Shown here: positions 3,034 through 23,173 of the stretch, piece after piece
How positions within the stretch are numbered: position 1 is the first letter of the stretch
Layout: each line of letters begins with the position of its first letter
Assembly: GCA_021735045.1 (NCBI GenBank)
Contig: JAIPHU010000002.1
Span: 1-32,000, forward strand
Source: Candidatus Omnitrophota bacterium
GTDB lineage: Bacteria; Omnitrophota; Gorgyraeia; Duberdicusellales; 4484-171
DNA length: 32,000 nt
Direction of reading: 5' to 3'
The notes under the pieces: model-generated
Seen by the model: the letters and a program-made list of their open reading frames with translations, nothing else
Told to the model about the DNA's origin: nothing
Database searches by the model: none
Program-made: the position numbers and the translations under genes

Positions 3034-3108
3034 CTGCCGTGAACCAGAACAAGTACGGTTCACGGCAGCTCCGAATCGTAGTTTTGCAAAGCAAAACTTC
3101 TGGTTCGG
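3034..3108 (+). ncRNA. Two adjacent strong stem-loops in the roughly 130-nt leader of the patatin gene (candidate cis-regulatory RNA or small RNA, family unknown)
   Basis: Hairpin 1: ctgccgtgaacc (3034-3045) pairs with ggttcacggcag (3057-3068), 12 bp perfect, 11-nt loop. Hairpin 2: ccgaatc/ggttcgg (3071-3077 with 3102-3108, one G-U) plus agttttgc/gcaaaact (3080-3087 with 3091-3098) and an aaa loop. Confidence 0.4.
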
Positions 3109-3125
3109 TGCTGTGTTTAAAAATT

Positions 3126-4046
3126 ATGGCAAAAAAGAAAAAAATTGGATTAGTTTTAGGTGGAGGCGGGGCGCGAGGCTTGGCTCACATTGGTGTAATC
3201 AGGCAGCTGGAAAAAGCAGGGATTGTCCCTGATATTATAGTAGGAGCTAGTATGGGAGCAGTAATTGGAGGAGCTTATGCGCTTTTTGCGAATGCAAAAA
3301 TTTTAGAAAAAAAAGTTCTAGAATTGGTTAAAAATAAAGATTTAAGTAAATTAGAATCTTTAGCTGCACCGCGCAGTGAAGAAGATAAGGAAATTATTTT
3401 TCAAAGATTAGCAACCTTTGTTTCTAAACTTGTGCTTTGGAATTTACGGGCAGTAAAAGGTTCTATAACTGATGGGATAAAAATTAAAGAGATAATTAAT
3501 AAATTAATAAATTCAAAAAAATTTTCACAGACAAAAATAAAATTCGCTTGCACCGCAATTGATATTAATTGGGGTAAAGAAGTGCTTTTTACTAAAGGTT
3601 TTTTAGCTGATGCTATTTTTGCCAGCATCTCGATTCCGGGAGTTTTTCCACCGATAAAGCAAGATGGTAAGCTTTTGGTTGACGGTGGTATAATTAATAT
3701 GGTTCCGGTTGAAGTAGCCCAAAGGCTTGGGGCAGACATTACTATTGCAATTGATGCAAGTTTAGACATTAAGCCAACAGAATTTAAACACGGTCATGAT
3801 ATTTTATTCCGGACAGAGATGATTAAGGAAAAAGAAATCGGCGAACTTAAAATGAAATCAGCTGATATTATAATTAGGCCTGATGTAGGAGGTTATAGTT
3901 GGGCTCGATTTTCAAAAATTAACTCTCTTATTAAAAAAGGAGAAGTTGCCGCCAATGATAAGTTGGCTGAGATTAAAAAAGTAATAGAGGGTAAAAATAG
4001 TTTATTAAACAAGATAACCGGTAAGTTGCGAGGTAAGAAAAAATGA
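3126..4046 (+). CDS. Patatin-like phospholipase (RssA-like)
   Basis: GGGGARG oxyanion motif, GASMG (GxSxG nucleophile) and DGG catalytic Asp motif. Start moved to MAKKKKIGLVLGGG (ATG 3126) because the track's upstream extension is Cys-rich nonsense covering the hairpin region. Confidence 0.9.
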   Translation: MAKKKKIGLVLGGGGARGLAHIGVIRQLEKAGIVPDIIVGASMGAVIGGAYALFANAKILEKKVLELVKNKDLSKLESLAAPRSEEDKEIIFQRLATFVSKLVLWNLRAVKGSITDGIKIKEIINKLINSKKFSQTKIKFACTAIDINWGKEVLFTKGFLADAIFASISIPGVFPPIKQDGKLLVDGGIINMVPVEVAQRLGADITIAIDASLDIKPTEFKHGHDILFRTEMIKEKEIGELKMKSADIIIRPDVGGYSWARFSKINSLIKKGEVAANDKLAEIKKVIEGKNSLLNKITGKLRGKKK

Positions 4047-5001: not shown

Positions 5002-5526
5002 ATGAGTAAAAAGATATCAGGCATAAGTATTGAATGCACAAAGGGAGATATTGCTGCCCAGCCTGATTTAGATGCAGTGGTAAATGCAGCAAATAAAGAT
5101 TTAGTAATCGGAGGGGGCGTGGCAGGAGCGATTCATAGGAAAGCTGGCCCAAAACTAGAAGAAGAGTCAGCTAAGCTTGGGCCAATAAAACCAGGTCAAG
5201 CTGTTATAACGGGAGCTTATCAGCTTTCCAATAAATTCGTAATTCATTGCCTGGGGCCTGTATACGGTAAAGATAAACCAGAAGATAGGCTGCTTGCCGA
5301 TTGTTATAGAAATGCGCTTTATTTAGCTGAGCAAAACAAGATAAAATCAATTGGGTTTCCGGCTATTTCAACCGGAGCCTTTGGCTATCCGATAAAATTA
5401 GCAATAAAAGTTGTAAAAGAAGTAGTTGAGGAGATTGTTCCTAAATTGAGCAACTTAGAAAAAATAAAATTTGTCTTGTATAATCAAGATAATCTAAAGA
5501 TATACCAGCAGACTTTTAAGACATAA
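5002..5526 (+). CDS. Macro-domain protein (ADP-ribose / O-acetyl-ADP-ribose binding or hydrolysing, YmdB-like)
   Basis: VNAANKDLVIGGGVAGAIHRKAGP and FPAISTGAFGYP motifs are classic macrodomain signatures. Confidence 0.9.
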   Translation: MSKKISGISIECTKGDIAAQPDLDAVVNAANKDLVIGGGVAGAIHRKAGPKLEEESAKLGPIKPGQAVITGAYQLSNKFVIHCLGPVYGKDKPEDRLLADCYRNALYLAEQNKIKSIGFPAISTGAFGYPIKLAIKVVKEVVEEIVPKLSNLEKIKFVLYNQDNLKIYQQTFKT

Positions 5527-5987: not shown

Positions 5988-6353
5988 ATGGAAAAAGGGA
6001 ATAATGGTGGTAAACCGTTCAATTTAGAAAAAAGAACATTGTTATTTACTAAATCTGTGGTTGATTTATGCAAAAAGTTAAGACACAATATTGTAAATCA
6101 ACGTTATATAAGTCAATTGCTTGATGCGGCGGGTTCAGTAGGAGCTAACTACAGGGAAGCAAATGAAAAGCTTAGCAAAAAAGATTTTATATTTCGAATG
6201 AGAATTACAAGAAAAGAATGCAAAGAAAGCAGTTATTGGTTAGAGATTCTCAAACATGCGAACAATAATTACGAAGACGAAATTGATAAGCTTATTGCAG
6301 AAGCGCAAGAATTGAGGAATATATTTACATCAATAATTGAGAAATCAACATAA
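5988..6353 (+). CDS. Four-helix-bundle protein of the 23S-rRNA-intervening-sequence protein / Avd-like family
   Basis: GANYREANE...SKKDF..R..I.RKECKES.YWLEIL is the hallmark pattern of this family. 121 aa. Confidence 0.85.
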   Translation: MEKGNNGGKPFNLEKRTLLFTKSVVDLCKKLRHNIVNQRYISQLLDAAGSVGANYREANEKLSKKDFIFRMRITRKECKESSYWLEILKHANNNYEDEIDKLIAEAQELRNIFTSIIEKST

Positions 6354-6454: not shown

Positions 6455-7006
6455 ATGAAGCCGAGAATTATGATTTTTTTAGATGCAGAGTACGTGGTTC
6501 AGAAAATGCGGGAGATACAACGAAGAAAAAAAATTGGCCGAAAAAGTATCAATTGGCAAAATATAATTAGATGGATTGCTGACAATCGCCGTTTGATTCG
6601 TTGTTATTATTACTCTGCCGAATTTAATAAAGCTGAAAACGAAAAAACTTATCAGGAGCAACACGATTATCTCAAAGACTTAAAACTCTCTATTCCTTAT
6701 TTTGAGATAAAACTAGGTCGTCTGGTGAGGGTTAATCAAGGTTGGGTACAGAAAGGGTTAGATGTAAAAATTGCTCTAGATATGTTTGCCAAAGCAGTGC
6801 TGGATCAATATGATGTTGCGGCACTGGTTTCAGGGGATTCAGATTTTATTGATGTGATCAAAGAGGTCAAAGAGCGTTACGGAAAACATGTTGAGCTTTA
6901 TACGTTCGACCGCTCAATCCATGAGGATTTAAGGCTTACTCCCGATGAACATTTAATTATAGACAGGTCAGCTGCCCGCCGGGGGCGGTTTTTTACACAA
7001 AAGTAA
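6455..7006 (+). CDS. NYN-domain (LabA/DUF88-like) putative ribonuclease
   Basis: [17 protein letters not shown] and ALVSGDSDF acidic motifs of LabA-like NYN domains. Strong aaggagg RBS. Confidence 0.85.
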
Positions 7007-8472: not shown

Positions 8473-10437
8473 ATGGCTAAGAAAAAATATAAAAAACAGA
8501 AACGAAAATTAGTTAAGGGATCCAAAACAGAGGACTTAGTTAGGCTTTTTACTGAGTTGATGGATAATATCCCTGATGTAATCTATTTTAAAGATAAAAG
8601 TGGGAAGATCGTTTTGGTAAATAAGGCTTATGCGAGAGGATTAGGTATAACTCCGGATGAAGTCATTGGCAAAACTGATTTTGATATTTTTCCTAAAAGT
8701 AGAGCCCAGATGATGCAGAAAGATGATCTCTGGGTAATAAAAAATAAAAAACCAATTATTGATAAAGTTGAAAGAGCTACTCGGCCTGATGGCCAAGATA
8801 ACTATAGCTCAACTACCAAAATTCCTCGTTTTGATAAAAAAGGATCAGTAATCGGTTTAATTGGAATAACTAGAGATATTACCCGGAGAAGAAGGCTTGA
8901 GCAATTAGAAGAAGATAAGCATCAGATGCAGCGAAAAATTAAATCGTTGAAGGAAATTAATAAGTTAAAGTCGGAGTTTATTTCTATTGTTTCCCATGAG
9001 CTTCGCACGCCTTTAGCTATTATTAATCAAGTAGTTATGGTCTTATTGGATGGATTAGTAGGAAAACTAAACAAAAAACAAAAAGATATTATCATCAAAG
9101 CAAAAAATAGCGTTAATCGGTTAAGCAATATGATAAATAAGTTGTTGGATGTTTCACGGATGCAAAGAGGAGTCCTAGAGCTTCATTATGGGTTGATAGA
9201 TTTAAAAAATTTGCTTAAAGATTTGGGGGGTTCTTTTCAAGAATTTGCTAAGAAAAAAGGAATTATCATTAACTATGATTTTTGTTCAGAAGATATAAAT
9301 TTATTTTGTGATCCAGAAAGGCTTTCACAAATTGTATCTAACTTAATTGATAATGCTATCAAGTTCTGCGAAGAAAAAAGTACAATAACTATTGAGTTGC
9401 GAAAGTTGGCAACAAAGGTCCGTATTGGTGTAATTGATCAAGGGATTGGGATAGATAAAACTAAAATAAATAAAATATTTGATAAGTTTAGTCAAGTTTC
9501 AGGTTTGGCTCGAAGCAACAAGGAAGGGGTGGGGTTAGGGCTTTCTTTAGTAAAGGACTTAGTTAAAAAACATAAAGGTGAAGTTTGGGTTGAGTCTAAG
9601 CTAGGTTCAGGGAGTAAATTTTATTTCACTCTTCCTTTAATTTATAAGTTTCAACTAACCAATAATAAAATAGTAGATATCATAAATAATGCTCTGGCTA
9701 AAGATTTATCTGTTTACTTGATTGAAGTTATAATTATAAAATCTAAAAAAGGGACATCTGGCAGATATACGGTGAAAAAAGATTTTTATAATAAAATTAA
9801 AGAGATAGTTCAAAAAGCTATAATAAACTATAAGGATAAAAATAAAATAGATATCTGCATTGTCGGTGATGACTACAAAAAAAGAACTATTAGCATAGCT
9901 TCAGTTGATAAAACTAATAAAAAATCTATAAAATTTTGCAATTTGTTAAGAGAAAAATTAAAAAAGGTATTAGCTAAAGAAGCAGCAAAGGACGTGTTTA
10001 TTAATTTGGGAACTATGAGTTACCCTAAAGAAAGCAGGCAAGTAGTTCCTCGCCAGTTGGCATCTTCTTTTAGTATTCAGAAAATTTTTACAGGAAAGGA
10101 GATAAGGCGGTCAAAGCGTTTTCGCTATCAGGCGACTTTAAATTTTAATTTATCTGATAAAAAAAGAGGTGCTGCTGAGACTATTGATATCTCTAAGGGC
10201 GGTTTGTGTTTTAAAAATGGCAAAAAACTTAAAAAAGGAGATAAAATAGAGGTGGAGCTTATGGTTTTGAATAAAAAAGAAAGGTTGAACCTTGTGGGTC
10301 AAGTAGCTTGGGTTGCACGAGCTGAAGAAGACAGCAAGGGTTTTGCAAGATATTATAAGATAGGAATTGAGTTTTCTAAACTTAATCAGAAGGAAAGAAA
10401 AATTATTACCCAAGCAATTGAAGATATAGCAAAATAA
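8473..10437 (+). CDS. Cytoplasmic PAS sensor histidine kinase with C-terminal PilZ domain (and a possible degenerate GGDEF-like linker domain)
   Basis: PAS (MDNIPDVIYFKDKSGKIVLVNKAY...GITRDIT). H-box SIVSHELRTPL, N-box NLIDNAIKF, G-box GVGLGLSLV. PilZ motifs RRSKR (R545xxxR549, nt 10105-10119) and DISKGG (D572xSxxG577, nt 10186-10203). Confidence 0.9.
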   Translation: MAKKKYKKQKRKLVKGSKTEDLVRLFTELMDNIPDVIYFKDKSGKIVLVNKAYARGLGITPDEVIGKTDFDIFPKSRAQMMQKDDLWVIKNKKPIIDKVERATRPDGQDNYSSTTKIPRFDKKGSVIGLIGITRDITRRRRLEQLEEDKHQMQRKIKSLKEINKLKSEFISIVSHELRTPLAIINQVVMVLLDGLVGKLNKKQKDIIIKAKNSVNRLSNMINKLLDVSRMQRGVLELHYGLIDLKNLLKDLGGSFQEFAKKKGIIINYDFCSEDINLFCDPERLSQIVSNLIDNAIKFCEEKSTITIELRKLATKVRIGVIDQGIGIDKTKINKIFDKFSQVSGLARSNKEGVGLGLSLVKDLVKKHKGEVWVESKLGSGSKFYFTLPLIYKFQLTNNKIVDIINNALAKDLSVYLIEVIIIKSKKGTSGRYTVKKDFYNKIKEIVQKAIINYKDKNKIDICIVGDDYKKRTISIASVDKTNKKSIKFCNLLREKLKKVLAKEAAKDVFINLGTMSYPKESRQVVPRQLASSFSIQKIFTGKEIRRSKRFRYQATLNFNLSDKKRGAAETIDISKGGLCFKNGKKLKKGDKIEVELMVLNKKERLNLVGQVAWVARAEEDSKGFARYYKIGIEFSKLNQKERKIITQAIEDIAK

Positions 10438-10521: not shown

Positions 10522-10761
10522 ATGATTAGAAAAGATAAATTATTAGTTAAATTAGATAAACTACAAGAGCTAGAAGGTAGGTTGATTCCTTTGTTGGATA
10601 AGCATCTTTCGGCTTCTCTAGACTTTAGTCAGTTGCCAAAAGAGGAAAGGGATAAGACCATGGAATTTTTAAAAAGTAGGGTAAATATACAGAAAAAACA
10701 CACTGAATCGATTAAAAGTATCAAAGAAGAATTAACCGAATCCGAAAAAAATGTTTACTAA
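10522..10761 (+). CDS. Small helical protein A1 (unknown family; paralogue of 18941-19165)
   Basis: 79 aa, charged and helical, no TM or signal. Gap-free alignment to A2 with shared E..(L/S)IP(L/I)..KHL.SA and a second conserved His. Overlaps the next ORF by 11 nt. Confidence 0.6.
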   Translation: MIRKDKLLVKLDKLQELEGRLIPLLDKHLSASLDFSQLPKEERDKTMEFLKSRVNIQKKHTESIKSIKEELTESEKNVY

Positions 10762-10945
10762 AGAAGATTACTTAACTTATTTTGATCAATTAGCAGATAT
10801 TTATAAAGATTCTATTAATCTCTACACTGATTTGCTAAATGGTTTACAAGATAAAGCAATCCGAAATAAGTTACTAGCAGTTGCTTCAGAAAATATGGAA
10901 GCTTTTCGTTTTATAAAAGAAGAAAAGACAAAATTTAATAAATAA
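10751..10945 (+). CDS. Small helical protein B1 (unknown family; paralogue of 19165-19368)
   Basis: 64 aa. Shares M.(T/S)KEDY, Y..L and DK.I(R/K)N with B2. Translationally coupled to A1. Confidence 0.6.
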   Translation: MFTKEDYLTYFDQLADIYKDSINLYTDLLNGLQDKAIRNKLLAVASENMEAFRFIKEEKTKFNK

Positions 10946-10956
10946 AAGGAGAAGTT

Positions 10957-11328
10957 ATGCCTGCCAACAAAAAAATACTTATTGCTGATGATGAACCAGA
11001 TTTTGTGGAACTTATATCCATGCGTCTTGAAGTTAACGGCTATGATGTGGTTTCGGCTAAAGATGGCCAAGAGGCAATTGATAAAACTAAAAGTGAAAAG
11101 CCGGATTTATTGATTTTAGACTTAATGATGCCCAAAGTTGATGGGTTTGAGGTTTGCCGGATGCTAAAGTTTGACGATAATTTTAAGGATTTGCCGATAA
11201 TAGTACTTTCTGCTCTTGATCAGCAACAAGATCGGGAAAAGGCCGTTGAGGCTGGAGCCGATGAATACTTTATCAAACCTTTTGATTTAAGCTTACTTTT
11301 AACTAAGATTCAAGAACTTACTGGATAA
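10957..11328 (+). CDS. Receiver-only response regulator (paralogue of 22302-22664)
   Basis: KKILIADDEPD, PDLLILDLMMPKVDG, IIVLSA, IKPFD. aaggag RBS. No output domain. Confidence 0.9.
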   Translation: MPANKKILIADDEPDFVELISMRLEVNGYDVVSAKDGQEAIDKTKSEKPDLLILDLMMPKVDGFEVCRMLKFDDNFKDLPIIVLSALDQQQDREKAVEAGADEYFIKPFDLSLLLTKIQELTG

Positions 11329-11437: not shown

Positions 11438-13540
11438 ATGGCACGAAGAATCAGTTTAGAAAAAGTACGTAATATTGGAATTATGGCTCATATTGATGCC
11501 GGTAAGACAACACTTACCGAACGCATTCTTTTTTATACCGGGCGGTCGCATAAAATGGGGGAAGTCCATGATGGAGCTGCGGTAATGGATTGGATGAAAC
11601 AAGAGCAAGAAAGAGGTATAACCATAACTTCAGCGGCAACTACTTGTAGTTGGTTGGATCACAGAATAAATATAATCGATACTCCTGGCCACGTTGATTT
11701 TACTGTTGAAGTTGAACGTTCTTTGCGAGTTTTAGATGGATCAATTGCTGTATTTTGTGCTGTAGGTGGGGTGGAACCTCAGGCAGAAAAGGTATGGCAT
11801 CAATCTGATAAATATGAAGTGCCAAAAATCGCTTTTGTAAATAAGATGGATAGGGCTGGAGCAAACTTTTTTGAAGTAGTCAAAGACATTGAAGAAGAGC
11901 TGGGGGCAAATGTTATCCCTTTACAAGTTCCTATTGGGGCTGAAGATAATTTTAGAGGAATAATCGATCTAATGGATATGAAAGCTTATATCTACGACGA
12001 TGAGTCTTTAGGTAAAAACTTTCACATTGAAGATATACCCACAGACTATCAAGATAAAGCTAAAGAGCATCATCATATAATGGTTGAAAAAGCTGTTGAA
12101 CTAGATGATTCTTTAATGGAGAAGTATCTTGAGTCCGAAGATTCTATTTCAAAAGAGGAGCTGGTTAAAGCTATAAGAAGAGGCGTTATAGCCAATAAAA
12201 TTGTTCCGGCAATGTGTGGTTCTGCCTTTAAGAATAAAGGGGTCCAGCGCCTTCTTGATGCGATAACTCTTTATCTTCCTTCTCCTCTGAATTTACCACC
12301 AGCTGAAGGAACAGATCCAAACGATCCTGAGAAAATAATTAAAAGAGAGCCTAAAGATGATGCACCTTTTTCAGCTTTGGCGTTTAAAGTACAAGCTGAT
12401 CCTCATATGGGAAAACTGATTTATTTTAGAGCTTACTCAGGCAAACTTGAGGCAGGCTCATATATTCAAAATGTAACCAAAGGAAAAAAAGAAAGAGTAG
12501 GGAGAATCTTACAGATGCATGCAAATCAACGTGAAAGCCGCCCGGATATATATGCTGGTGATATTGCTGCAGCAGTAGGGCTTGATAATACTACAACAGG
12601 AGATACTTTAACTTCAGTTGAAGATCAAGTGTTGCTTGAGGCTATGGAGTTTCCCGCACCGGTTATGGCAATAAGTATTAAGCCAGAAAGTAATGCCGAT
12701 CAAGATAAAATCTCAAAAGGCTTAAGCCGTTTAGCTGAAGAGGATCCCACTTTTACAGTTAAGACCGATAAAGAAACTGATGAAACTATTATATCAGGAA
12801 TGGGGGAGCTACACCTTGATGTTATTGTTGACCGCCTTAAGCGTGAGTTTGGTGTTTCAGCAAAAGTTGGAGCTCCTAAAGTTGCTTATCGGGAAACTAT
12901 TTTAGGGACTACAAAAGAAGACTATAAGTATGCAAAACAAACTGGTGGCCGCGGCCAATACGGCCATGTTGTCTTAGAGCTATCACCATCTAAGTCTTCG
13001 GAAGGTTTTGATTTTATCAATAGCATTAAAGGAGGGGCAATACCTCGTGAATATATTCCGGCTGTGGAAAAAGGGGTAATCGAGGTAATGAAAAAAGGTA
13101 TTTATGCAGGGTTTCCGGTAGTTGATGTGAAGGTAAACTTAGTAGATGGTTCTTATCATGATGTGGATTCATCAGAATTTGCTTTTAAAATGACCGGAGG
13201 CGAGTGTTTTAAGAAAGCTTTTAATAAGTGTGAGCCAGTTTTATTAGAGCCTTCTATGTCAATTGAGATTACAACTCCGGAAGATTATGTGGGCGGAGTT
13301 GTGGGCGATATCTGTTCGCGTCGCGGTAAAGTTATAAATATAGATTCAAAAGGTAAACAACAACTAATTTCAGCAGAAGCCCCTTTAGCTGAAATGTTTG
13401 GCTATGCTAGTACTTTACGTTCTTTAAGTAGTGGGCGAGCAAATTATTCAATGCATTTTGAAAAATACGTACAAGTTCCTTATCAGATAGCAGAAAACAT
13501 TATCGAAGAAAAGCAAAAAGAAAAGGAAGCAAAAAAATAA
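11438..13540 (+). CDS. fusA: Translation elongation factor G
   Basis: AHIDAGKTT (G1), DTPGHVDF (G3), NKMD (G4), 700 aa with typical EF-G domains II-V (e.g. [16 protein letters not shown]). Confidence 0.95.
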
Positions 13541-13708: not shown

Positions 13709-16150
13709 ATGAAGAAAATAATCAATCTTGTCTTTAGTTTAATTGTAGTTGCCGGATTAACTTCATTTCTATACCATTACACCCAGCAAGCAGAAATAAA
13801 TTATTATCAGGGGCACCGCTTATTTTTAAATGGTAACTATAGCAAAGCCATTCCTTACTACAAAAACTCTCTTAAAGCTGACCACAGACAATTTAAGGCA
13901 AAAAAAGAGTTAGCTTATTCTTATTTTTGGACTGATAATCCAAAAAAATCTATACCCCTTTTTGAAGATATTTCTAAAAAAAATCCAAAGAATCAAGAAT
14001 TAAAACTATATCTGGCTAAGGCCTATTCTCGAACTGGTAGCCGTAACAAGGCGCTATCGATTATGGGTAAGATTGAGACTAAGGACAAACAACTAGATAT
14101 AAAAATGACCTTAGCAGAAATTTATATCTGGAACAATCAGTTAACTAAAGCCAGAGAGTTGCTTAGAGAAGTTCTAGCTCAGAATCCTAGTAATAATAAG
14201 GCAAAGTTTCTTTTAGCTAAAACTTTTTATTATGATCAAAAAAGTAAAAAAGCTTCAAAAATCTTAGAAAATTTACTAGAGGAAGGAAAAGAACTGCCTG
14301 AGAATGTTAAAGAAAAAGAAGTAAGAGGGCTTTTAGCTCAAACTTATATATCAAGCAATCAGAGTCAAAGGGCGGTTGAGCTTTATCAGCAGTTGGTTGA
14401 TCAGAATCCTAACGATATAGATTTAAAAATGAAATTAGCTGAACTCTTAAGCTGGACTAAAGAACTAGAAAGATCAGAAGATTTGTATCGAAAAATAATT
14501 AAAAAATCCTCCCGGAAAAGAGAAGCCTATCTAGGCCTAGCTAAGGTATTAATTGGGCAAAACCGGTATAAAGAAGCTATCAGTATAATTGATAAGATCG
14601 GAAAAATAAAAGGAACTAAAAATGCAAAGCTGATGTATGGAAAAGCATTGTTATATTCAGGAAAACCAAAATTAGCGCGGGATATTTTTGCTAAACTATT
14701 AAAAGATTATCCTCAGGATTTAGAAACTAAAGAATTATTGGCAGATGCTTACGCCTATAGTAAAAAATATAAAAAAGCGATTTTATTATATCGGAAAATT
14801 CTAGTTAAAACAGATCGTCGCAAAACAAAAAAAGGTTTGGCAGCAGTTTTAAGTTGGAATCAGCAATACCAAAAATCAATTAAATTATACGATCAATTAC
14901 TTGCCGAGGAGTACGATCCAGAGGTTAAACGGCAAAAAGCTCGCGTATTAGGCTGGAGCAAGAACTACCAGAAAGCTTTAGCTGAATATAAGGATTTACT
15001 GGATAAGGAAAAAAGTTCAGCGATTAGGCTGGAGATGGAGGCAAAACAAGCTTATTGGCAGGGAGAAGTTAAGAGTGCAATCAACAATTACCAAAAGCTC
15101 TTGATTGCAGAGCCAGATAACGTTGAAGCTGCCTTTGATCTCAGCCAGCTTTACTCTTATCAGGATATGTGGGAGGAGGCGATCAACCAATATGAAAATA
15201 TCTTAAAAGTACAACCACTGCATTCCAGAGCCAGAGAAGGCTTAGAAAAAGCAAAAATTTTTTATAAAAAAGTTAAAACCAGGCTAGATTATCTATTTTT
15301 TGAAGCTGATTCTCCCGACAGAACTACAGACATTAAAAAACACCAAGTTTTAAAATCAGCATCTTTTTTTATTGCTAAAAATAAAAAAATAAAGATTTCT
15401 TCTGACTTTGCCCAGAGAAGTTTTTCTGATTTTTCTTCGATTTCAGAAAGTAAGACCCAGCTCGAAATTAGCTACCAAAATAATCCCGATTGGAATTTAA
15501 GCGCTTATTACGGTTTAGTTAATTACTACAAGCACCTCGATGAGTTATTCCATCTATTTGGAGCATCTTTTTACCATCGTTTTTTTGATCGGGGGATGTT
15601 TAACTTTAATTACCAACGCCAAAGGCTGACCGACAACAGCCAGTTGATTAGAGATTACGCTTACCGGCATAGTTTTGAAAATAAAATTGATTTTGATTTA
15701 ACGTCGAAACTTAAAATGGGCCTTGACTGTAGATTAGCCTATTATTTTGATGCAAATTTTTTAGTTGAACCAGGAATTGATTTTACCTATTATTTTTCTA
15801 AAGAGCCCAGGCAATTTTATCTTACCTATAGGTACTTTTTTAAAGAATTTAGAAAAGAAAGTTCTGATTATTGGACACCGCGGGGGTTTTCTACCAATAA
15901 ATTAACTTTAGCTTGGCGTCATTACCTAAATTCAGACCAATTATTTTTTGGGGCAGATCAGCTTTATTATCAGCTAAAGTATGAAGTTTCCTTAGATTCA
16001 ACAGACATTTTAATTCATAAATTTATTGGCCAATTTAACTGGGATATTAATAAGAGTCTGAATATCCACTTTGGTGGTTCTTTTGCCGATACAACTTCCA
16101 ATGTTTATCAGGAAAAAAGAATTACGGCGGGGTTAAGCTATTATTTTTAA
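13709..16150 (+). CDS. Outer-membrane exopolysaccharide export protein: N-terminal TPR array plus C-terminal beta-barrel (PgaA/BcsC-like architecture)
   Basis: N-terminal signal or anchor. About 500 aa of TPR-like repeats (A..Y...L...P.N). The last ~290 aa are aromatic-rich with alternating hydrophobicity, ending in GLSYYF (terminal Phe beta-signal). Confidence 0.75.
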   Translation: MKKIINLVFSLIVVAGLTSFLYHYTQQAEINYYQGHRLFLNGNYSKAIPYYKNSLKADHRQFKAKKELAYSYFWTDNPKKSIPLFEDISKKNPKNQELKLYLAKAYSRTGSRNKALSIMGKIETKDKQLDIKMTLAEIYIWNNQLTKARELLREVLAQNPSNNKAKFLLAKTFYYDQKSKKASKILENLLEEGKELPENVKEKEVRGLLAQTYISSNQSQRAVELYQQLVDQNPNDIDLKMKLAELLSWTKELERSEDLYRKIIKKSSRKREAYLGLAKVLIGQNRYKEAISIIDKIGKIKGTKNAKLMYGKALLYSGKPKLARDIFAKLLKDYPQDLETKELLADAYAYSKKYKKAILLYRKILVKTDRRKTKKGLAAVLSWNQQYQKSIKLYDQLLAEEYDPEVKRQKARVLGWSKNYQKALAEYKDLLDKEKSSAIRLEMEAKQAYWQGEVKSAINNYQKLLIAEPDNVEAAFDLSQLYSYQDMWEEAINQYENILKVQPLHSRAREGLEKAKIFYKKVKTRLDYLFFEADSPDRTTDIKKHQVLKSASFFIAKNKKIKISSDFAQRSFSDFSSISESKTQLEISYQNNPDWNLSAYYGLVNYYKHLDELFHLFGASFYHRFFDRGMFNFNYQRQRLTDNSQLIRDYAYRHSFENKIDFDLTSKLKMGLDCRLAYYFDANFLVEPGIDFTYYFSKEPRQFYLTYRYFFKEFRKESSDYWTPRGFSTNKLTLAWRHYLNSDQLFFGADQLYYQLKYEVSLDSTDILIHKFIGQFNWDINKSLNIHFGGSFADTTSNVYQEKRITAGLSYYF

Positions 16151-16162: not shown

Positions 16163-17995
16163 ATGAATAAGAAAAAATTAATTGATTCTTTGATTTTATT
16201 TACTTTGGTTGCAGTGATGGTCTATGTTGTAACCAGGGCGGTTTTAGTTGGTTATGCTGATTATACTGGCTGGGATCGTTTTAGTGCTATCGGTTTGTTG
16301 CTGGCAGAGTTGTTTGTAGTTTTTCATGGCGTAGGTTATACCTTAAACATCTATCGGGCTTATAGGTATAGTGGTGGAAAAGAAAAGATGCAAGAGGTAG
16401 CAAATAAACCTTTGCCAGAGGAACCATCGGTTGCGATATTTGTTGCTGCGCGCCATGAACCAAAAGAAGTTTTAGAGGAAACTTTTATTAGCATCAAAAA
16501 CTTAAAATATAAAAATAAGAGTATTTATTTCCTTGATGATAGCTCTAAAAGCACTTATAAAAAAGAAGCAGATCAATTAGCAAAAGATCTAGATTTAAAG
16601 ATTTTTCGACGCAAGGATCGCCACGGAGCAAAGGCAGGAATCATTAATGATTGTCTAAAGACAATTAATTCTAAGTATTTAGTTGTTTTTGATGCAGATC
16701 AGAATCCGCTACCTGAGTTTTTAAATCGTGTGGTGGCGTTGATGGAGTCGGACCAAAGACTTGCTTTTGTCCAAACCCCTCAATTTTATAGTAATGTGGA
16801 AGGTTCACAAATTGCCAAAGCGGCGGCTTTTCAGCAAGCGGTATTTTATGAATATATCTGTGAAGGAAAAAGTAGCCAGGATGCGATGTTTTGTTGCGGA
16901 ACAAATATTATTTTTCGCAAAAAAGCCTTAGATCAAGTAGGTGGCCTAGATGAAAGTACAGTTACCGAAGATTTTGCCACTTCTTTTAAATTTCACCAAA
17001 AAGGCTGGAACTCTTTATATTACAATCATGTCTATGCTTTTGGGATGGGGCCGGAAGATTTAGTCGGTTATTTTAAGCAGCAATACCGTTGGGCCAACGG
17101 CACGATCACTGTTTTTAAGAAAGTGTTAAAGAATTTAATATTGCACCCATTTTCTTTAAAAATTAAACAATGGGTAGAGTATTTACTTTCCAGCAGTTAC
17201 TATCTAGTTGGTTTTGCCTTATTTGGCTTGATGCTTTTTCCGATCTTTTATCTTTTATTTGACATCCCTTCTTTCTTTGCTAAGCCACAAGTTTATTTTT
17301 TAGTTTTTTTACCTTATATAACTCTTTCTTTAAGTATATTTTATTTCGTGTTAAAAGAAAGGAACTATACTGCCGGAGATCTTTTTAAAGGCCAGCTGGC
17401 CGGGTTTATAAGCTTTCCGATCTATTTGCAAGCCGCTGTTTCTTCCTTTTTTGGCAGAAAGGCTACTTTCGGGATAACCTCAAAAGCAAAGGGGAAGTTT
17501 GTATCTTATTTTAGATTGTGGCCGCAAATTGTACTTTTATTCCTAAATTATATTGCGATTGTCTGGGGAATGAATCGATTCATCTATCAACGTGATCCGG
17601 CGGTAGTAATTAATGTTTTTTGGGCCTTTTATCATTTTTTGCTGTTAGCTTCTATTTTTTATTTTAACGAAAGGATTATTCCTAAGGCTTTTTTAAAAAA
17701 AATTGCGAAAGAGAGAATAGTTGACTATCAAGTTCTCGAGAGAAATCGCCCCAAACCTGAATTAAACTCTAGGAATTGGCCGGTTTGTTTTGCGACCAAG
17801 TTGCCGGATCGATTAAAAGAGGGAACACTGTTGATGGCAAAAGTAAAAAGCAGAGGAGGAAAGCAGCTAATCTTTGACGCAGAAGTTACCTGGGCGAGTC
17901 CCAGAAAGCGGTTTGGCGGTTATGCTACTGGCTTTGGAGTTGCCAAGGCTTCACCGGAAATTATTACCCAATTAAGGAAATTAGTAAAAAAATGA
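16163..17995 (+). CDS. Processive family-2 glycosyltransferase, cellulose-synthase-like, with degenerate PilZ-like C-terminal domain
   Basis: YFLDDSS, HGAKAGIIND, VVFDADQ (DxD), FVQTPQFY, VTEDFATS (TED), QQYRWANG (QxxRW). 2 N-terminal and about 4 C-terminal TM helices. The C-terminal ~95 aa form a small beta domain resembling the PilZ C-terminal part. Confidence 0.9.
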   Translation: MNKKKLIDSLILFTLVAVMVYVVTRAVLVGYADYTGWDRFSAIGLLLAELFVVFHGVGYTLNIYRAYRYSGGKEKMQEVANKPLPEEPSVAIFVAARHEPKEVLEETFISIKNLKYKNKSIYFLDDSSKSTYKKEADQLAKDLDLKIFRRKDRHGAKAGIINDCLKTINSKYLVVFDADQNPLPEFLNRVVALMESDQRLAFVQTPQFYSNVEGSQIAKAAAFQQAVFYEYICEGKSSQDAMFCCGTNIIFRKKALDQVGGLDESTVTEDFATSFKFHQKGWNSLYYNHVYAFGMGPEDLVGYFKQQYRWANGTITVFKKVLKNLILHPFSLKIKQWVEYLLSSSYYLVGFALFGLMLFPIFYLLFDIPSFFAKPQVYFLVFLPYITLSLSIFYFVLKERNYTAGDLFKGQLAGFISFPIYLQAAVSSFFGRKATFGITSKAKGKFVSYFRLWPQIVLLFLNYIAIVWGMNRFIYQRDPAVVINVFWAFYHFLLLASIFYFNERIIPKAFLKKIAKERIVDYQVLERNRPKPELNSRNWPVCFATKLPDRLKEGTLLMAKVKSRGGKQLIFDAEVTWASPRKRFGGYATGFGVAKASPEIITQLRKLVKK

Positions 17996-18948
17996 TTAAA
18001 AAAATTAAATTAATAGTGATTATTTTTATTATTATTTTGTTTTCTTTTTTTTATTTTGCATACATAAAGCAAATCGGTAAAAACGATTATTGTTTAACGG
18101 GTGCTTTTTTGGCGGACCGGCCAACTAGAAAAGAGATAAAAGAATTTCAAAACAACTATGGTAAAAAGCCATATTTGGTGATGGTTTTTATTGATTGGGA
18201 AAACTTTATTGAAAGAAGTGTCTATCAAGATATTTTTGCTGCCGGTTCAGTTCCTTTTGTTACCTGGGAGCCTTGGCAGGCCGAAACTAAAGAAGGAATT
18301 GATTTTGACCAAATCTTAAGCGGAGAGTATGATCAGTATATAACTAATTTTATAGAGAGGATCACTAAATTTAAAAAGCCAGTTTTTTTACGCTTTGCTC
18401 ATGAAGCTAATGGCAACTGGTATCCTTGGGCCGGGAAAAAAGTGGGAGCTGCGAAGTTAATCGCTGTGCAAAGATATCTCAAGGATTTGGCAGAGAGGCA
18501 AGGCCCCAATCAGATCAAGTGGGTGTTTTCGGTTAATTGGCAAGATATACCGGCAGATAAAGATAATTTTTTTATGAACTACTATCCGGGCAAAGACTAC
18601 GTTGATTATTTTGGCATTGATGGTTATAATTGGGGTGATACGCAAGAATGGAGTCATTGGATGGAATTTGCAGAGATTTTTAAAGATCCCTATCAGATTA
18701 TAACCTCAGAGACAAATAAACCGGTTATAATTTCTGAATTTGGCTCGGCTCAATCCGGTGGAGATAAAGCTGAATGGATAAAAAATACTTTTAAAACTAT
18801 AAAGAAAATGAAAAGAGTTAAAGGTTTTGTTTTGTTTAATCTGGATAAGGAAGCAGCTTGGCGGTTTCGGCCCCAAAGTGCAGCTGGTAAGCAACTCAAA
18901 AAAGGATTAAACAACTCATATTTTAAGGAGAGCCTGAAAGGTGAATAA
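17992..18948 (+). CDS. Membrane-anchored GH26-like glycoside hydrolase
   Basis: N-terminal TM anchor. RFAHEANGNWYPWAG (GH26 acid/base HE.NG.W motif) and IISEFGS (nucleophile Glu). ATGA overlap with the GT2 stop. Confidence 0.7.
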   Translation: MIKKIKLIVIIFIIILFSFFYFAYIKQIGKNDYCLTGAFLADRPTRKEIKEFQNNYGKKPYLVMVFIDWENFIERSVYQDIFAAGSVPFVTWEPWQAETKEGIDFDQILSGEYDQYITNFIERITKFKKPVFLRFAHEANGNWYPWAGKKVGAAKLIAVQRYLKDLAERQGPNQIKWVFSVNWQDIPADKDNFFMNYYPGKDYVDYFGIDGYNWGDTQEWSHWMEFAEIFKDPYQIITSETNKPVIISEFGSAQSGGDKAEWIKNTFKTIKKMKRVKGFVLFNLDKEAAWRFRPQSAAGKQLKKGLNNSYFKESLKGE

Positions 18949-19165
18949 AAAAGAAATTATCAAGCATCTTAAAGAAGCCTTAATTGCAGAAGAAAAATCA
19001 ATTCCAATTTATACTAAGCATCTTGATTCAGCTGTTTTTTGGACTGGGCTAGGAAAAGAAAAAGCTGAGGAAATTAGAGAGATTCTTTCCGAATTAGCGC
19101 GAGGTTCAATGATCCATAAACAAATTATTGAAAATTTGATCAAAAAACTAGAAGGGGAAACTTAA
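18941..19165 (+). CDS. Small helical protein A2 (paralogue of A1)
   Basis: GTG start 10 nt after aaggagag, overlapping the GH26 3' end by 8 nt. 74 aa. E17-x6-Y24 and S56-x2-H59 pattern. Confidence 0.6.
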   Translation: MNKKEIIKHLKEALIAEEKSIPIYTKHLDSAVFWTGLGKEKAEEIREILSELARGSMIHKQIIENLIKKLEGET

Positions 19166-19368
19166 TGCTATCCAAAGAAGACTACCAAGAACATCTTAAT
19201 CAGATGCTGGAGTTAGAAGAAAACATGGAAAAAATGTATGAAAATCTAGCCAAGAGGGTTGAAGATAAAGAAATAAAAAATATTTTTAGAAAAATTAGAG
19301 ATGATGAACAAAAACATGCCGCTTTGGTGCGAAAAATGAAAAAAATGATTACCGAAGAAAGCAATTAA
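19165..19368 (+). CDS. Small helical protein B2 (paralogue of B1); reads like one ferritin/rubrerythrin-type helix pair
   Basis: TAATG stop/start overlap with A2. 67 aa. E18-x6-Y25 and E48-Q-K-H51 (ExxH). Confidence 0.6.
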   Translation: MLSKEDYQEHLNQMLELEENMEKMYENLAKRVEDKEIKNIFRKIRDDEQKHAALVRKMKKMITEESN

Positions 19369-19383: not shown

Positions 19384-22287
19384 ATGAGATATAGATTAAG
19401 CATTAAAATTTTATTTTGGTTTTCCTTGTTTATTATAGCAATTGTCGTAGTAAATTTGGCTTCTATTTATCAACTGCAGCGAATGGAAAAGCCCCTAAAA
19501 GAAGAGCTAACCCAAGATATCCAAAACATCAAAGAAAACGAAATATTAGATCATCTAGCTGAATTGATAAGATACTACGATGAAGTTTTAACTCAATCGG
19601 TGCGAAATTATGCTTTTACCGGTAACTTAGAGTGGAAGAAGCGCTATCAAAATATTGAACCAAAATTAGATCAGGCGATCAAAGAAGCAATATCTCGTGG
19701 AAACAGACAGGATAAAAAATTTTTTAAAACAGTTGATCAAGCCAATGAAATTTTGGTCAACCTTGAACATCAAGCTCTAGACTTAGTTGACCAAGGTAAT
19801 CAAGATCAGGCGATTGCGATTTTAGAAAGTAAAAAATATAGAGCCAATAAAAATCAATACTATTCTGGCTTTAGTAGCTACTTACAACGGAGAATGTCTG
19901 AGCACGAAAAAGCGATAACTTTCTCCAGCAAAGATTTAGAAGAAACAATAAGTATATTAAATGAAATTACAAAACAAAATTATTATTTTTTTATCGCTTC
20001 CTTAGCTTTTATCTTGTTGGTCTCATTCTTGTTTGGCTTATTTTTACGTTTTAATGTTTCTCAGCCGTTAACTCGATTGGTAAAATTAATCAAAGCTTCC
20101 GGTAAAAAGGGAGGAAGGAAAGATCTCGTTAACAATAATTTTGGCTTGATGAAACGAAAAGATGAGATTGGAGAGTTGGCAACAACTTACAACCAAATCT
20201 GGCAAGATCTAGAAGAAACTACAGTTTCTCGCGAAAAACTAGTAAAAGAAGTTGAGCTGCATAAGGAATCAAAACAAAAGATTAGCCGCCTAAATATGAT
20301 CTTACGGTCAATCTCAGAAATAAACCAAATGCTAATTAATGTTGATAACCGAAAAAGTTTAATTGAAAAAACCTGTCGAGAGCTGATTAATATTAGGGGT
20401 TATAAAAGTGCCTGGATTGTTCTATTTGATCCTCAAGGTGATTTTTTAGATGCTGCATCTTTCGGGCTAGGCGATAAATTTAATTTATTTAAAAATGATA
20501 TTAAAGTAGGAAGCATCCCCCGCTGTTTAAGTAAAATATGCAAGGAAAAGAAGCTATTTCAAGTTGATGAGCCGCATCAAATGTGCAAAGATTGCTCCTT
20601 ATATAAATACCACCAAGGAGTTAAAACTATTGTTACTTGCCTGCAGCTAGAGGGGGTTGTATATGGGGCCTTAACGGTAGCTATTCCTGAGAGTATTGAA
20701 ATTGATCAGCAAGAGTTATCTTTGCTTAAGGAAATTAGCGGAGATATTTCTTTGGGGCTGCATCACTTAGAAGTTGAAAAAAAACGTCGGTTAACTGAAA
20801 ATAAGTTAAAAGAAAGAGTAAAAGAATTTGGTTGTTTGTCAAATTTGGCAAAAATTGTCGAGGAGCCCGGTATTAGCTTAGAAGGAATATTAGCTAAAAC
20901 AGTGGAGATAATACCTTTTGCCTTGCAATATCCCAGTAGTGCTTCGGCTCGATTAAGGTATGCAGAAAATGAGTATAATACTAAGGGTTTTAAGGAAACC
21001 AATTGTAAATTAAAAGAGGATATTTATGTTGATTTAAAAAAGGTTGGTTTTATCGAAGCTTGTTATTCTTTAAGTATACAGGATGAAAAAGGGGAGTGTC
21101 CTTTTTTAGAAGAAGAAAATACTTTATTTAGATTGATAGCGGAACGGCTAGGCAGAATTATCGAACGAAAAAAAGCCGAAGAGTTTTTAGAAGAAGCTAA
21201 AAATAAATTCAGTAGTTTAGTGGACAATGTTCCCGGGGCTATCTATCGATGTGCCAATGATTCAAAATGGACTATGAATTATATTAGTGATGAAATTGAG
21301 AAAATATCTGGTTATCCGGCTAGTGATTTTATTAAAAATAAGGTAAGAACTTATGAAAGTATAATTTACAAAGAAGACAAGGATTTGGTCAATAAAAAGA
21401 TTCAAGAAGCTATAGAAAAAGGAAAATCTTATAATATTGAATACAGAATAGTTAATAAAAATGATAAGGTTGTATGGGTGGGCGAGAAAGGGAAAGGTGT
21501 ATTCAATAAAGAGGAAAAATTGATTTGGCTTGACGGTGTTATCTTTGATATTACTTTACAGAAGAAAGCAGAAGATAAATTAGAAAAAGCAATAAAAATG
21601 AAGTCAGATTTTTTATCCACAGTTTCTCATGAGTTGCGTACTCCACTGGCTGCAATCAAAGAAGGGATAAATATAGTTTATGACCAATCCGCCGGTAAAA
21701 TTAACAAAGAGCAGAAAGAATTTTTGACGATATCAAAAAGAAATGTAGACCGCTTGGCTCGTTTGATCAACGATGTCTTAGATATCCAGAAATTAGAATC
21801 AGGCAAAGCGGAGTTTAATTTTAAAAAAGAGAATATCAATGACATAATTAAAGAAGTTTTTGAGACGATGCAGCCCCATGCAGCTAAAAAGCAATTACAG
21901 TTAAAATTAAATCTAGATAGTAATATTTCGAAGATAAAAGTTGATCGGGATAAGATCATTCAAGTTATCACCAATTTGATGAGTAATGCAATTAAATTTA
22001 CTGAACAAGGGAAAGTAGTTATAAAAAGCTTGTTAGAGCAAAATGCGATAAAGGTTATAGTCTCTGACACAGGGCCGGGGATAAAAAAGGAAGATTTGTC
22101 AAAATTATTTAAGACATTTCAACAACTTCAAACTGGAAAAGGACGGAAAACCGGGGGGACTGGCCTAGGATTGGCAATCTGTAAGGATATAATCAACAAA
22201 CACCGTGGGAAAATATGGGCAGAGTCAGAACTAGACAAAGGCTCAAAATTTATTTTTTTGCTGCCGATTAAGGAAAGGCGAGCTTAA
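19384..22287 (+). CDS. Large multi-domain sensor histidine kinase (TM - helical extracytoplasmic domain - TM - HAMP - GAF-like x2 - PAS - HisKA - HATPase_c)
   Basis: TM1 aa ~9-27, TM2 aa ~200-222, HAMP-like (PLTRLVKLI...IGELATTYNQI). PAS (VDNVPGAIYRC...GVIFDIT). H-box STVSHELRTPL, N-box NLMSNAIKF, G-boxes DTGPGI and GTGLGLAICK. Confidence 0.9.
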   Translation: MRYRLSIKILFWFSLFIIAIVVVNLASIYQLQRMEKPLKEELTQDIQNIKENEILDHLAELIRYYDEVLTQSVRNYAFTGNLEWKKRYQNIEPKLDQAIKEAISRGNRQDKKFFKTVDQANEILVNLEHQALDLVDQGNQDQAIAILESKKYRANKNQYYSGFSSYLQRRMSEHEKAITFSSKDLEETISILNEITKQNYYFFIASLAFILLVSFLFGLFLRFNVSQPLTRLVKLIKASGKKGGRKDLVNNNFGLMKRKDEIGELATTYNQIWQDLEETTVSREKLVKEVELHKESKQKISRLNMILRSISEINQMLINVDNRKSLIEKTCRELINIRGYKSAWIVLFDPQGDFLDAASFGLGDKFNLFKNDIKVGSIPRCLSKICKEKKLFQVDEPHQMCKDCSLYKYHQGVKTIVTCLQLEGVVYGALTVAIPESIEIDQQELSLLKEISGDISLGLHHLEVEKKRRLTENKLKERVKEFGCLSNLAKIVEEPGISLEGILAKTVEIIPFALQYPSSASARLRYAENEYNTKGFKETNCKLKEDIYVDLKKVGFIEACYSLSIQDEKGECPFLEEENTLFRLIAERLGRIIERKKAEEFLEEAKNKFSSLVDNVPGAIYRCANDSKWTMNYISDEIEKISGYPASDFIKNKVRTYESIIYKEDKDLVNKKIQEAIEKGKSYNIEYRIVNKNDKVVWVGEKGKGVFNKEEKLIWLDGVIFDITLQKKAEDKLEKAIKMKSDFLSTVSHELRTPLAAIKEGINIVYDQSAGKINKEQKEFLTISKRNVDRLARLINDVLDIQKLESGKAEFNFKKENINDIIKEVFETMQPHAAKKQLQLKLNLDSNISKIKVDRDKIIQVITNLMSNAIKFTEQGKVVIKSLLEQNAIKVIVSDTGPGIKKEDLSKLFKTFQQLQTGKGRKTGGTGLGLAICKDIINKHRGKIWAESELDKGSKFIFLLPIKERRA

Positions 22288-22301: not shown

Positions 22302-22664
22302 ATGAGTAAAAAGATTTTAATTGTAGATGATGAGCCAGATATTTTAAAAATTGTAATTTTTCGGCTCAAGAATAAGGGCTATCAAACAATCAGTGCAACC
22401 AGTGGAGAAGAAGCGTTTCAGTTGTTAGGAGAGGATAAACCGGACCTTATCATTTTAGATTTACGAATGCCGGGTATCAATGGGGATGAGGTTTGCCGCA
22501 GGATTAAAGCAGACAATAATTTAAATAAGATACCGGTAATCTTGTTAACCGCATCTACCGGCCATGATATTGCAGGATTAGCAAAAGATATAGGAGCGGT
22601 TGATTTCATTCGAAAACCCTTTGATAGTCAACATTTTATCAATAAAATAGAGAATGTTCTCTAA
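22302..22664 (+). CDS. Receiver-only response regulator
   Basis: KKILIVDDEPD, PDLIILDLRMPGINGDE, VILLTAS, IRKPFD. No output domain. Confidence 0.9.
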   Translation: MSKKILIVDDEPDILKIVIFRLKNKGYQTISATSGEEAFQLLGEDKPDLIILDLRMPGINGDEVCRRIKADNNLNKIPVILLTASTGHDIAGLAKDIGAVDFIRKPFDSQHFINKIENVL

Positions 22665-23091: not shown

Positions 23092-23140
23092 CAAGTAAAC
23101 AAAAGAAAATAGATCCGATACTCTCGTAAGTGTTTCATAA

Positions 23141-23173
23141 GAGGCAGTAGATTGTTCTACTGCCTCTTTTTTT
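23141..23173 (+). terminator. Rho-independent terminator of the RRM gene
   Basis: gaggcagtag-attgtt-ctactgcctc (10-bp perfect stem) followed by seven T. Confidence 0.85.

Follow-up and report, generated by a model that had tools for sequence, protein, structure and literature searches.

The closest described relatives of the proteins reported here are half-ferritins of the EncFtn type (Rru_A0973, PFC_05175 and M. xanthus EncB/EncC; PF22277), in which a two-helix hairpin needs a second hairpin and the metal site lies at the interface. The EncFtn ferroxidase residues Glu32, Tyr39, Glu62 and His65 come from two chains (PMC5012862); the assembly is a homo-decamer with a symmetric site, the chain carries a C-terminal targeting peptide, and a shell gene is adjacent. 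In the rubrerythrins and erythrins (PF02915; symerythrin 3qhb, TM1526 1vjx, Pfu 2fzf), a single four-helix chain with internal two-fold pseudo-symmetry, often joined to a rubredoxin, holds the full set of Glu/His ligands. Here, a stretch of 32,000 nucleotides from a Candidatus Omnitrophota bacterium (assembly GCA_021735045.1, contig JAIPHU010000002.1, positions 1 to 32,000 of the forward strand), referred to below as the window, was analysed. It contains two copies of a coupled pair of short genes, A and B, whose products are very probably paralogous two-helix half-ferritin hairpins. Unlike EncFtn, the proposed assembly consists of two paralogous hairpins from coupled genes with asymmetric ligands, and the genes lie in a polysaccharide operon with genes for PilZ, response regulator and histidine kinase proteins. 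The ferritin-like fold is known; what appears to be new is the split heterologous pair, its two subtypes and its dedication to the Bcs/Nfr-like exopolysaccharide system of Omnitrophota. No earlier description was found in the literature on ferritin-like or rubrerythrin proteins in connection with PilZ, exopolysaccharide or Omnitrophota.

Copy 1 consists of A1 (10522-10761, + strand, K9L84_04340), a 79-aa helical hairpin of the A-family subtype named L24, and B1 (10751-10945, + strand, K9L84_04345), a 64-aa hairpin of the B-family subtype without canonical ligands (Y18, S21, N48, A51). The start of B1 sits within A1, and the two genes overlap by 11 nt. Copy 2 consists of A2 (18941-19165, + strand), a 74-aa hairpin of the Y24/S56 subtype with a GTG start, and B2 (19165-19368, + strand), a 67-aa half-ferritin hairpin with an intact half-site (E18, M21, Y25, E48-x2-H51). 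Here the junction is TAATG, with one base common to the B2 start codon and the A2 stop. The locus tags given for these genes in the source metagenome-assembled genome (MAG) are K9L84_04340, 04345 and 04375. An earlier reading made from the DNA letters alone (the sequence-only reading) had given the same lengths, coordinates, 11-nt overlap and TAATG junction, and the motifs it had reported were reproduced by ungapped alignment, namely E17, I21-P22, K26-H27-L28 and H59 (A2 numbering) between A1 and A2, and M1, K4-E5-D6-Y7, Y25, D34, I37 and N39 between B1 and B2. Its residue assignments were also correct, both for the ligand-like pattern of copy 2 (E17-x6-Y24 and S56-x2-H59 in A2, E18-x6-Y25 and E48-x2-H51 in B2) and for copy 1, where A1 has Leu for Tyr and QxxH, and B1 has Y18 and E47-x2-E50. 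As it had stated, no transmembrane-like segment was found in any of the four proteins by hydropathy (maximum KD19 ≤0.57).

The two copies are similar to each other by BLASTP (A1 and A2, E=2e-5; B1 and B2, E=5e-8), and A1 scored 97.8 bits with the A-family hidden Markov model (HMM). Compared with orthologues in related MAGs, dN/dS was 0.16-0.25 for A2 and B2; for A1 and B1, pN was 0.10-0.19, with pS at about 0.8 and saturated. All four genes are therefore under purifying selection and are real genes. The Shine-Dalgarno sequence of A2 is AAGGAG, 9 nt 5' of the start and within the 3' end of the preceding glycoside hydrolase gene, and that of B2 is GAAGGGGA. An AAGGAG Shine-Dalgarno sequence also precedes the response regulator gene 3' of B1.

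By the curated threshold, B2 belongs to the ferritin-like Rubrerythrin family: it covers the C-terminal half of the PF02915 model with 28.4 bits (gathering score 22.8), and it is labelled by NCBI as a 'ferritin-like domain-containing protein'. The earlier statement that none of the four proteins could be placed in a named family is thus wrong for B2. A2 covers the N-terminal half of the same model below threshold (19.9 bits, E=1e-3), and no match was obtained for A1 or B1 in the Pfam scan; A1, A2 and B1 are divergent relatives below the Rubrerythrin threshold. The gene order A2-B2 corresponds to the order of the N-terminal and C-terminal hairpins of the Rubrerythrin domain. The per-hairpin Rubrerythrin motif (a Glu in helix 1 and ExxH in helix 2) is full in B2 and absent from A1 (QxxH) and B1 (Y18, N48, A51); A2 has E17 with S56xxH59, where Ser replaces Glu. 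At E≤0.01, PF02915 was matched by 11 of 103 A members and 10 of 27 B members; Rubrerythrin was the sole recurring Pfam family among the former and the top family among the latter, followed by other families of the ferritin clan.

When B2 and the profile of ligand-type B proteins were compared with the PDB, only di-metal four-helix-bundle proteins were matched. The ligand-type B profile matched the designed protein DF1 (Due Ferri) at 7e-6 and symerythrin at 2e-4, and further matches from B2 or this profile were Alr3090, Pfu 2fzf, NE0167, TM1526, bacterioferritin, EncC and rubrerythrin. With the A-family profile, marginal matches only were observed (symerythrin, 0.08; RNR-beta, 0.45; EncC, 0.47). 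The relation between A and B is visible at the profile level only, and direct BLASTP of A2 against B2 gave no similarity. In the hhalign comparison of the two family profiles, a full-length alignment was obtained with a probability of 82%, E=1e-5 and about 20% identity, in which A-E17 is aligned with B-E18, A-Y24 with B-Y25 and A-S56xxH59 with B-E48xxH51, and A has a 9-residue loop insertion relative to B. The HMM cross-matches between the two families were 17-19 bits.

AlphaFold2 (AF2) models built on the family alignments had a pLDDT of 93 for both proteins of copy 2. In A2, helices are predicted at residues 3-25 and 39-72, with a short helix (31-34) in a structured loop; in B2, at 4-31 and 35-65. 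The best Foldseek neighbour of the B2 model in the PDB was P. furiosus EncFtn 5n5e (TM score 0.90, root-mean-square deviation 1.4 Å). The others (7s5c, 7s8t, 5da5, 3k6c) were mostly encapsulated ferritins (EncB, EncC, Rru_A0973, NE0167), with DF1. The split ferritin/rubrerythrin-like bundle of the sequence-only reading is therefore supported as far as homology is concerned, by Pfam, the A/B profile alignment and the neighbours of the B2 model, and the A:B complex and metal binding are what we infer.

The likeness of B2 to EncFtn lies in the E-x6-Y...E-x2-H spacing and in the model (TM score 0.8-0.9). Glu32, Tyr39, Glu62 and His65 of EncFtn correspond to E18, Y25, E48 and H51 of B2 with a constant offset of 14. 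The scores of B2 were below the EncFtn cut-offs (PF22277, 19.4 vs 27 bits; NF058679, 25.8 vs 90 bits; TIGR04535, 20.6 vs 125 bits), and its NCBIfam matches to EncB, EncFtn and PA2169 were all below threshold; A1, A2 and B1 gave no match to PF22277, NF058679 or TIGR04535. Neither the annotated open reading frames of the window nor the genes tabulated for 14 related loci include a member of an encapsulin/Linocin family, and the C-termini of B proteins are short and charged or run on into PilZ. Since its scores fall below the cut-offs and no shell gene is present, B2 is not an EncFtn. The internal pseudo-symmetry of the erythrins mirrors the paralogy of A and B; in contrast to the single erythrin chain, A and B are split in every member, Ser stands for one bridging Glu, and a whole A/B subfamily lacks the canonical ligands. 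The Due Ferri proteins DF1/DF2 (1mft, 1ec5, 1y47), the top PDB sequence matches of B2 (about 7e-6 with the profile), are hairpins with one E and one ExxH each that dimerise on a di-metal site; as designed homodimers without biological context, they serve as a chemical model only. The sequence-only reading had regarded coupled two-helix halves as an unusual construction. Two-helix half-ferritins have a precedent in the EncFtn homodimers (PMC5012862), and it is the heterologous pair and its context that are unusual.

Homologues are numerous. The word-indexed homologue search, which covered a set of 5.8 billion proteins, recovered 105 A-type (74-79 aa) and 27 B-type (63-77 aa) proteins, and an exhaustive profile search gave 423 A-type cluster representatives at E≤1e-3, with 171 at ≤1e-10. 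The best 150 of the 423 were all stand-alone proteins of 72-94 aa. The initial concatenated query in the word-limited index had found 2 relatives, and the genome and metagenome DNA scans 2 loci each. Among the 105 + 27 + 150 homologues listed, no A-B fusion was found, and the split is therefore a stable design and not a frameshift.

Two subtypes were observed in each family. In the A proteins of the Y24 type, E17, E18, P22, Y24, H27, S56 and H59 were each 100% conserved among 36 members, and among 129 members the values were 98% for E17, 96% for H27, 96% for S/T56 and 99% for H59. The L24 type, which includes A1, retains only P22, K/R26, H27 (92-99%) and H59 (98-99%); E17 is reduced to about 55%, position 56 is Q, K or H, and Y24 and S56 are gone. 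In B proteins of the ligand type (13 members), E18, M21, Y25, E48 and H51 are invariant, and the ligand-less type, which includes B1, has conserved motifs of its own (YTDLLN, AIRNKL, SENMEAFRF). The E47-x2-E50 of the B1 type persists, shifted by one residue, so that A1:B1 may have a non-canonical site. The A1:B1 type was the commoner one in the word-indexed recovery, with 69 of the 105 A-type matches. Copy 1 had been described as the more degenerate copy, and this does not hold: as judged from these alignments, copy 1 is not decaying, and A1:B1 is a distinct subfamily without canonical ligands, conserved in its own right.

The conserved pairing for which the sequence-only reading had proposed a search was found in the homologues, with B directly 3' of A in 19 of 20 non-redundant loci that had downstream DNA. 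The usual junction is the 11-nt overlap; the lineage of window copy 2 has the 1-nt overlap, and one related locus (L003; related loci are given below by such numbers) has a 15-nt gap. The C-terminus is (D/N)(V/A)(Y/F) in about 200 of 250 A proteins, and the +1 frame at this place encodes the M(F/L)(T/S)K of B. The subtype of A equalled that of B in 27 of 27 pairs, 8 of which were paired only because their contigs had identical lengths, and the canonical ligands have been lost jointly from both partners. In addition, B was the more negative partner in 25 of 27 pairs, with mean charges of +3.0 (A) and -2.4 (B) in the ligand-less type, and of -0.4 (A) and -3.6 (B) in the ligand type. Adjacency, overlap, subtype match and charge favour, and do not prove, a 1:1 A:B complex, and on this comparative evidence A and B probably form such a heterodimer.

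The genes surrounding the pairs gave a functional lead that the sequence-only reading had missed, namely polysaccharide-synthase operons, PilZ fusions, and neighbouring response regulators and kinases. Copy 2 closes an operon whose first gene (13709-16150, + strand) encodes a tetratricopeptide repeat (TPR) protein, assigned by Pfam TPR, that has a hydrophobic segment in its N-terminal part and terminates in an OMP-like ...GLSYYF. This protein, a putative porin or scaffold of the outer membrane (BcsC/PgaA/NfrA-like), is syntenic in L001-L003, L006, L007, L012, L014, L016, L018 and L020. The following gene (16163-17995, + strand) encodes a GT2 processive glycan synthase, cellulose-synthase-like by Pfam and motifs (DAD, TED, QQYRW), and is followed by a GH26 glycoside hydrolase gene (17992-18948, + strand; Pfam), whose 3' end overlaps the start of A2 by 8 nt. 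After A2 and B2, the operon continues with a 967-aa sensor histidine kinase with PAS_3, HisKA and HATPase domains (19384-22287, + strand; 15 nt 3' of B2) and ends with a 120-aa receiver-only response regulator (22302-22664, + strand). A strong terminator-like hairpin lies at 23139-23168.

The C-terminal extension of the GT2 synthase (about 110 aa, residues ~500-610) has no Pfam match, and orthologues occur in forms of ~610 aa and of ~510-530 aa. A canonical PilZ domain in this extension was rejected, as RxxxR and DxSxxG are absent; the extension could serve for docking or for nucleotide binding of a non-canonical kind.

Copy 1 lies 2.7 kb upstream of the copy-2 operon, in the order histidine kinase(PAS)-PilZ, A1, B1, receiver and elongation factor G (EF-G). 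The kinase directly 5' of A1 (8473-10437, + strand) has, by Pfam and motifs, a PAS-HisKA-HATPase architecture with a C-terminal PilZ domain (RRSKR, DISKGG), and about 150 aa without family match separate its HATPase and PilZ domains. This arrangement upstream of A1-B1 is conserved in L008-L011. A stand-alone 123-aa receiver, a CheY-like response regulator (10957-11328, + strand), begins 11 nt 3' of B1, and the A-B-receiver triad is kept in every locus of the A1:B1 pair type. The EF-G (fusA-like) gene at 11438-13540 lies between the triad and the TPR-GT2 operon, with the same order in L008-L011. In more distant relatives the triad is inside the polysaccharide operon, so the rearrangement took place in the window lineage.

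At every informative locus, the pairs were found in operons with TPR, GT2 and glycoside hydrolase genes. The order TPR-GT2-GH26-A-B was observed in L001, L002, L003, L012 and L016; TPR-TPR-GT2-A-B-receiver-GH8, in part followed by a histidine kinase, in L006, L007 and L018; and GT2-A-B-receiver-Hpt-GH26 in L019. Two short contigs hold GH26-A-B (L004) and A-B (L005). As to the polymer, a mannan or mixed-linkage glucan is suggested by GH26 and a cellulose-like glucan by GH8. Both pair types occur in one operon in L014/L015 (TPR-TPR-GT2-[A-B]-receiver-GH26-[A-B-PilZ]) and in L020 (...GT2-[A-B]-receiver-GH8-[A-B]-histidine kinase), the latter with the A-B-kinase order of window copy 2. In L019, the Hpt gene (3057-3407) stands between the receiver after A-B and GH26, which hints at a phosphorelay on the polysaccharide system. 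In L020, a lone 59-aa half-rubrerythrin hairpin (1879-2058; E...Y...EEEKH; weak PF02915) lies just 5' of the TPR genes.

Ligand-type B proteins with a C-terminal PilZ domain were found in five distinct lineages (L004, L005, L012, L014, L016). The PilZ domains scored 32.5 and 31.4 bits with Pfam PilZ (gathering score 22.5) with RxxxR and NxSxxG intact, and E18, M21 and E48xxH51 are retained in all the fusions. In the window, neither B1 (64 aa) nor B2 (67 aa) has a PilZ domain, and the nearby PilZ is on the kinase at 8473-10437. The synthase systems regulated by cyclic di-GMP (c-di-GMP), such as BcsA-PilZ, Alg44-PilZ/Alg8, PgaCD, NfrB-MshEN/NfrA and the BgsA C-terminal domain, have the same type of operon, with a GT2 synthase (QxxRW), a TPR protein or porin and a glycoside hydrolase. 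B-PilZ of the relatives resembles a trans-acting receptor subunit such as Alg44. Unlike B-PilZ, those receptors are not known to carry a ferritin-like bundle, and B2 of the window is itself without PilZ. Two published surveys of PilZ architectures mention no ferritin, rubrerythrin or four-helix partner. A functional analogy only is offered by the hemerythrin sensors (the DcrH-Hr chemoreceptor and Vibrio cholerae Bhr-DGC), where a di-iron four-helix bundle serves as the O2 or redox input; hemerythrins differ in fold family, have His-rich ligands and are single-chain, and no sequence relation to A or B was detected.

Taken together, there is about an even chance, judged from gene content and conservation, that the A:B half-ferritin heterodimers serve the polysaccharide synthase as regulatory or sensor subunits in the cytoplasm. 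In the proposed assembly, translational coupling would yield equal amounts of A and B, and one A and one B would pack antiparallel into a four-helix bundle, as the hairpins of the EncFtn dimer or the halves of a rubrerythrin domain do. The A2:B2 interface would hold an asymmetric site of the di-metal type, with E18 and E48xxH51 (and Y25) contributed by B2, and E17 and S56xxH59 (and Y24) by A2, Ser replacing one bridging Glu. Such a site would suit sensing (O2, peroxide, NO or iron status) or metal-dependent assembly better than ferroxidase turnover. Because the Ser in place of a bridging Glu is invariant, no shell or rubredoxin partner is present, and PilZ is fused to B, sensing or regulation is preferred over iron storage or peroxidase activity. 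Located in the cytoplasm as a regulatory subunit of the synthase-dependent exopolysaccharide machine (a TPR porin, a GT2 synthase and GH26 or GH8), the bundle would couple metal, redox or O2 status to the c-di-GMP- and phosphorylation-dependent control of the GT2 synthase. In the window genome, B2 is encoded next to the sensor kinase and regulator, whereas many relatives have a B2-PilZ fusion. A1:B1 would be an old paralogue pair that gave up the canonical ligands, with A keeping H27 and H59, and together with its stand-alone receiver it would supply a second, phosphorylation-linked input or adaptor for the same machine. The most specific version, in which the split half-ferritin with an asymmetric (E/E/H + E/S/H) metal centre is a redox, O2 or iron sensor wired to the exopolysaccharide machine through the PilZ fusion, the receiver and the kinases, is put forward tentatively as a possibility that we consider doubtful.

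Several observations weigh against this picture of a paired metal sensor. On the structural side, the A2 model gave generic helical hairpins only in Foldseek against the PDB (E>0.6) and no specific neighbour. The profile searches proposed by the sequence-only reading connected B2 with Rubrerythrin and di-metal bundles, but the concatenated A+B profile gave no collinear full-length erythrin match in the PDB, its matches coming from the B half. The adjacency of A and B has an exception in a divergent, high-GC A-like gene (L021, 706-945; T56xxH59, H24), where no B-type gene was found in the 444 nt downstream on a contig of only 1.4 kb. A single ancient duplication of the whole cassette, not many independent events, lies behind the subtype concordance, and the operon association is linkage, not mechanism. 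With Ser for Glu in A, it may be that no di-metal site is formed. The core role of the family does not depend on metal chemistry, given that the canonical ligands are missing from the more often recovered A1:B1 type. In A, H59 and the loop residue H27, which follows helix 1, are kept in both pair types, even opposite a ligand-less B, and their conservation in the ligand-less type is unaccounted for by the di-iron model. Within this protein family, a sensor role is without experimental precedent. The invariance of M21 in ligand-type B is also unexplained by the model.

Other explanations draw on the same data. It is fairly unlikely that the two proteins are only co-regulated and assemble separately, B2 into EncFtn-like dimers (or rings) whose di-iron ferroxidase site is symmetric, and A into a homodimer with another role. 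This explanation is consistent with the complete EncFtn-type half-site of identical spacing in B2 alone, with the closest B2 folds being homo-oligomeric EncFtn, EncB and EncC and homodimeric DF1, with an A/B identity of only ~20%, and with M. xanthus EncB and EncC, presumably homo-oligomeric paralogues, being separate PDB entries (7s5c, 7s8t). However, ligand-type B is strongly acidic, so that its homodimer would be more repulsive than A:B; the E/S/H set, all that an A2:A2 dimer would have as ligands, is nonetheless 100% conserved; neither an encapsulin shell gene nor a targeting tail was found; and strict adjacency, the conserved overlapping start and stop and the matched subtypes point to a 1:1 complex. 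Still less can be said for a protective rubrerythrin-like enzyme, with A2:B2 as a small peroxidase or ferroxidase against H2O2/Fe(II), co-expressed with the biofilm matrix as a stress response and without contact to the synthase. The family link to rubrerythrin and ferritin-like di-iron proteins, and the superoxide dismutase and desulfoferrodoxin genes near the pair in L018, agree with it, and Omnitrophota are mostly anaerobes in which rubrerythrins are common. It is nevertheless very unlikely, since neither a rubredoxin domain nor an obvious electron-donor partner is present, Ser takes the place of one bridging Glu, the PilZ fusion and the receiver triad point to signalling, and the ligand-less paralogue could not be such an enzyme.

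Some of the observations that trouble the metal sensor would be explained by a metal-independent adaptor or phosphotransfer bundle, docking the receiver, PilZ or kinase on GT2, with H27/H59 of A perhaps as Spo0B/Hpt-like phospho-His and the A2:B2 ligands as ancestral remnants or as a structural metal site. A1:B1, the type without canonical ligands, is strongly conserved and was recovered more often, H27/H59 are 92-99% conserved in both types irrespective of the B ligands, a receiver always follows B1, and kinases flank both pairs. Spo0B and the DHp domains of histidine kinases are hairpin-dimer four-helix bundles. We nonetheless regard this explanation as unlikely, because no match to Hpt (PF01627), HisKA or Spo0B was obtained at E≤0.01 in 103 A and 27 B members, in L019 a separate Hpt gene already follows the receiver, H59 aligns with the core-facing ExxH position and not with a solvent-exposed one, and a relic would hardly keep E/E/H/Y/S invariant in the ligand type. 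Finally, halves in different frames with overlapping ends have a frameshift-like appearance, and a frameshifted rubrerythrin pseudogene or chance open reading frames might be supposed. The pseudogene is refuted by the conservation data, and an artefact of either kind has practically no probability left: the split is shared by all several hundred homologues, which come from many samples, and no fused form was found; selection is purifying, there are two independent copies per genome, and Shine-Dalgarno sites precede A2, B2 and the response regulator gene after B1.

If A and B form the proposed bundle, the pair would be a natural heteromeric half-ferritin, showing how an asymmetric di-metal site can arise from two gene products and giving a handle on the origin of the ferritin/rubrerythrin fold from hairpin dimers. 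Synthase-dependent exopolysaccharide systems would gain a new accessory or regulatory module, PilZ a new partner domain that ties metal or redox status to c-di-GMP control of the biofilm matrix, and the largely uncultured phylum Omnitrophota a functional marker that is conserved and testable. If the sensor role is true as well, the pairs would represent a previously unrecognised class of regulatory subunits in synthase-dependent polysaccharide secretion and a living stage of two different hairpins between EncFtn-like homodimers and single-chain ferritin-fold proteins, and the ligand-less paralogue pair would be a bundle repurposed after loss of the metal site. Even as mere scaffolds, they would constitute a compact family of more than 420 clusters, almost entirely unannotated, with a clear genomic signature.

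Elsewhere in the window, several clustered small genes (5988-6353, 5002-5526, 6455-7006) lie 5' of the signalling genes. The cluster is syntenic in L008-L011 and encodes a 23S rRNA-intervening-sequence protein (of a four-helix-bundle family), a macro domain protein and an NYN nuclease. A further overlapping pair of short genes (28076-28384 and 28381-28695) encodes Lycopene_cyc halves of about 100 aa (PF18916), a heterodimeric lycopene cyclase of a known kind. It lies in a carotenoid cluster together with genes encoding a phytoene/squalene synthase (27109-27972, - strand), an amine-oxidase-type desaturase (24834-26276), a polyprenyl synthetase (29574-30617, - strand) and LytB (26273-27112, - strand).

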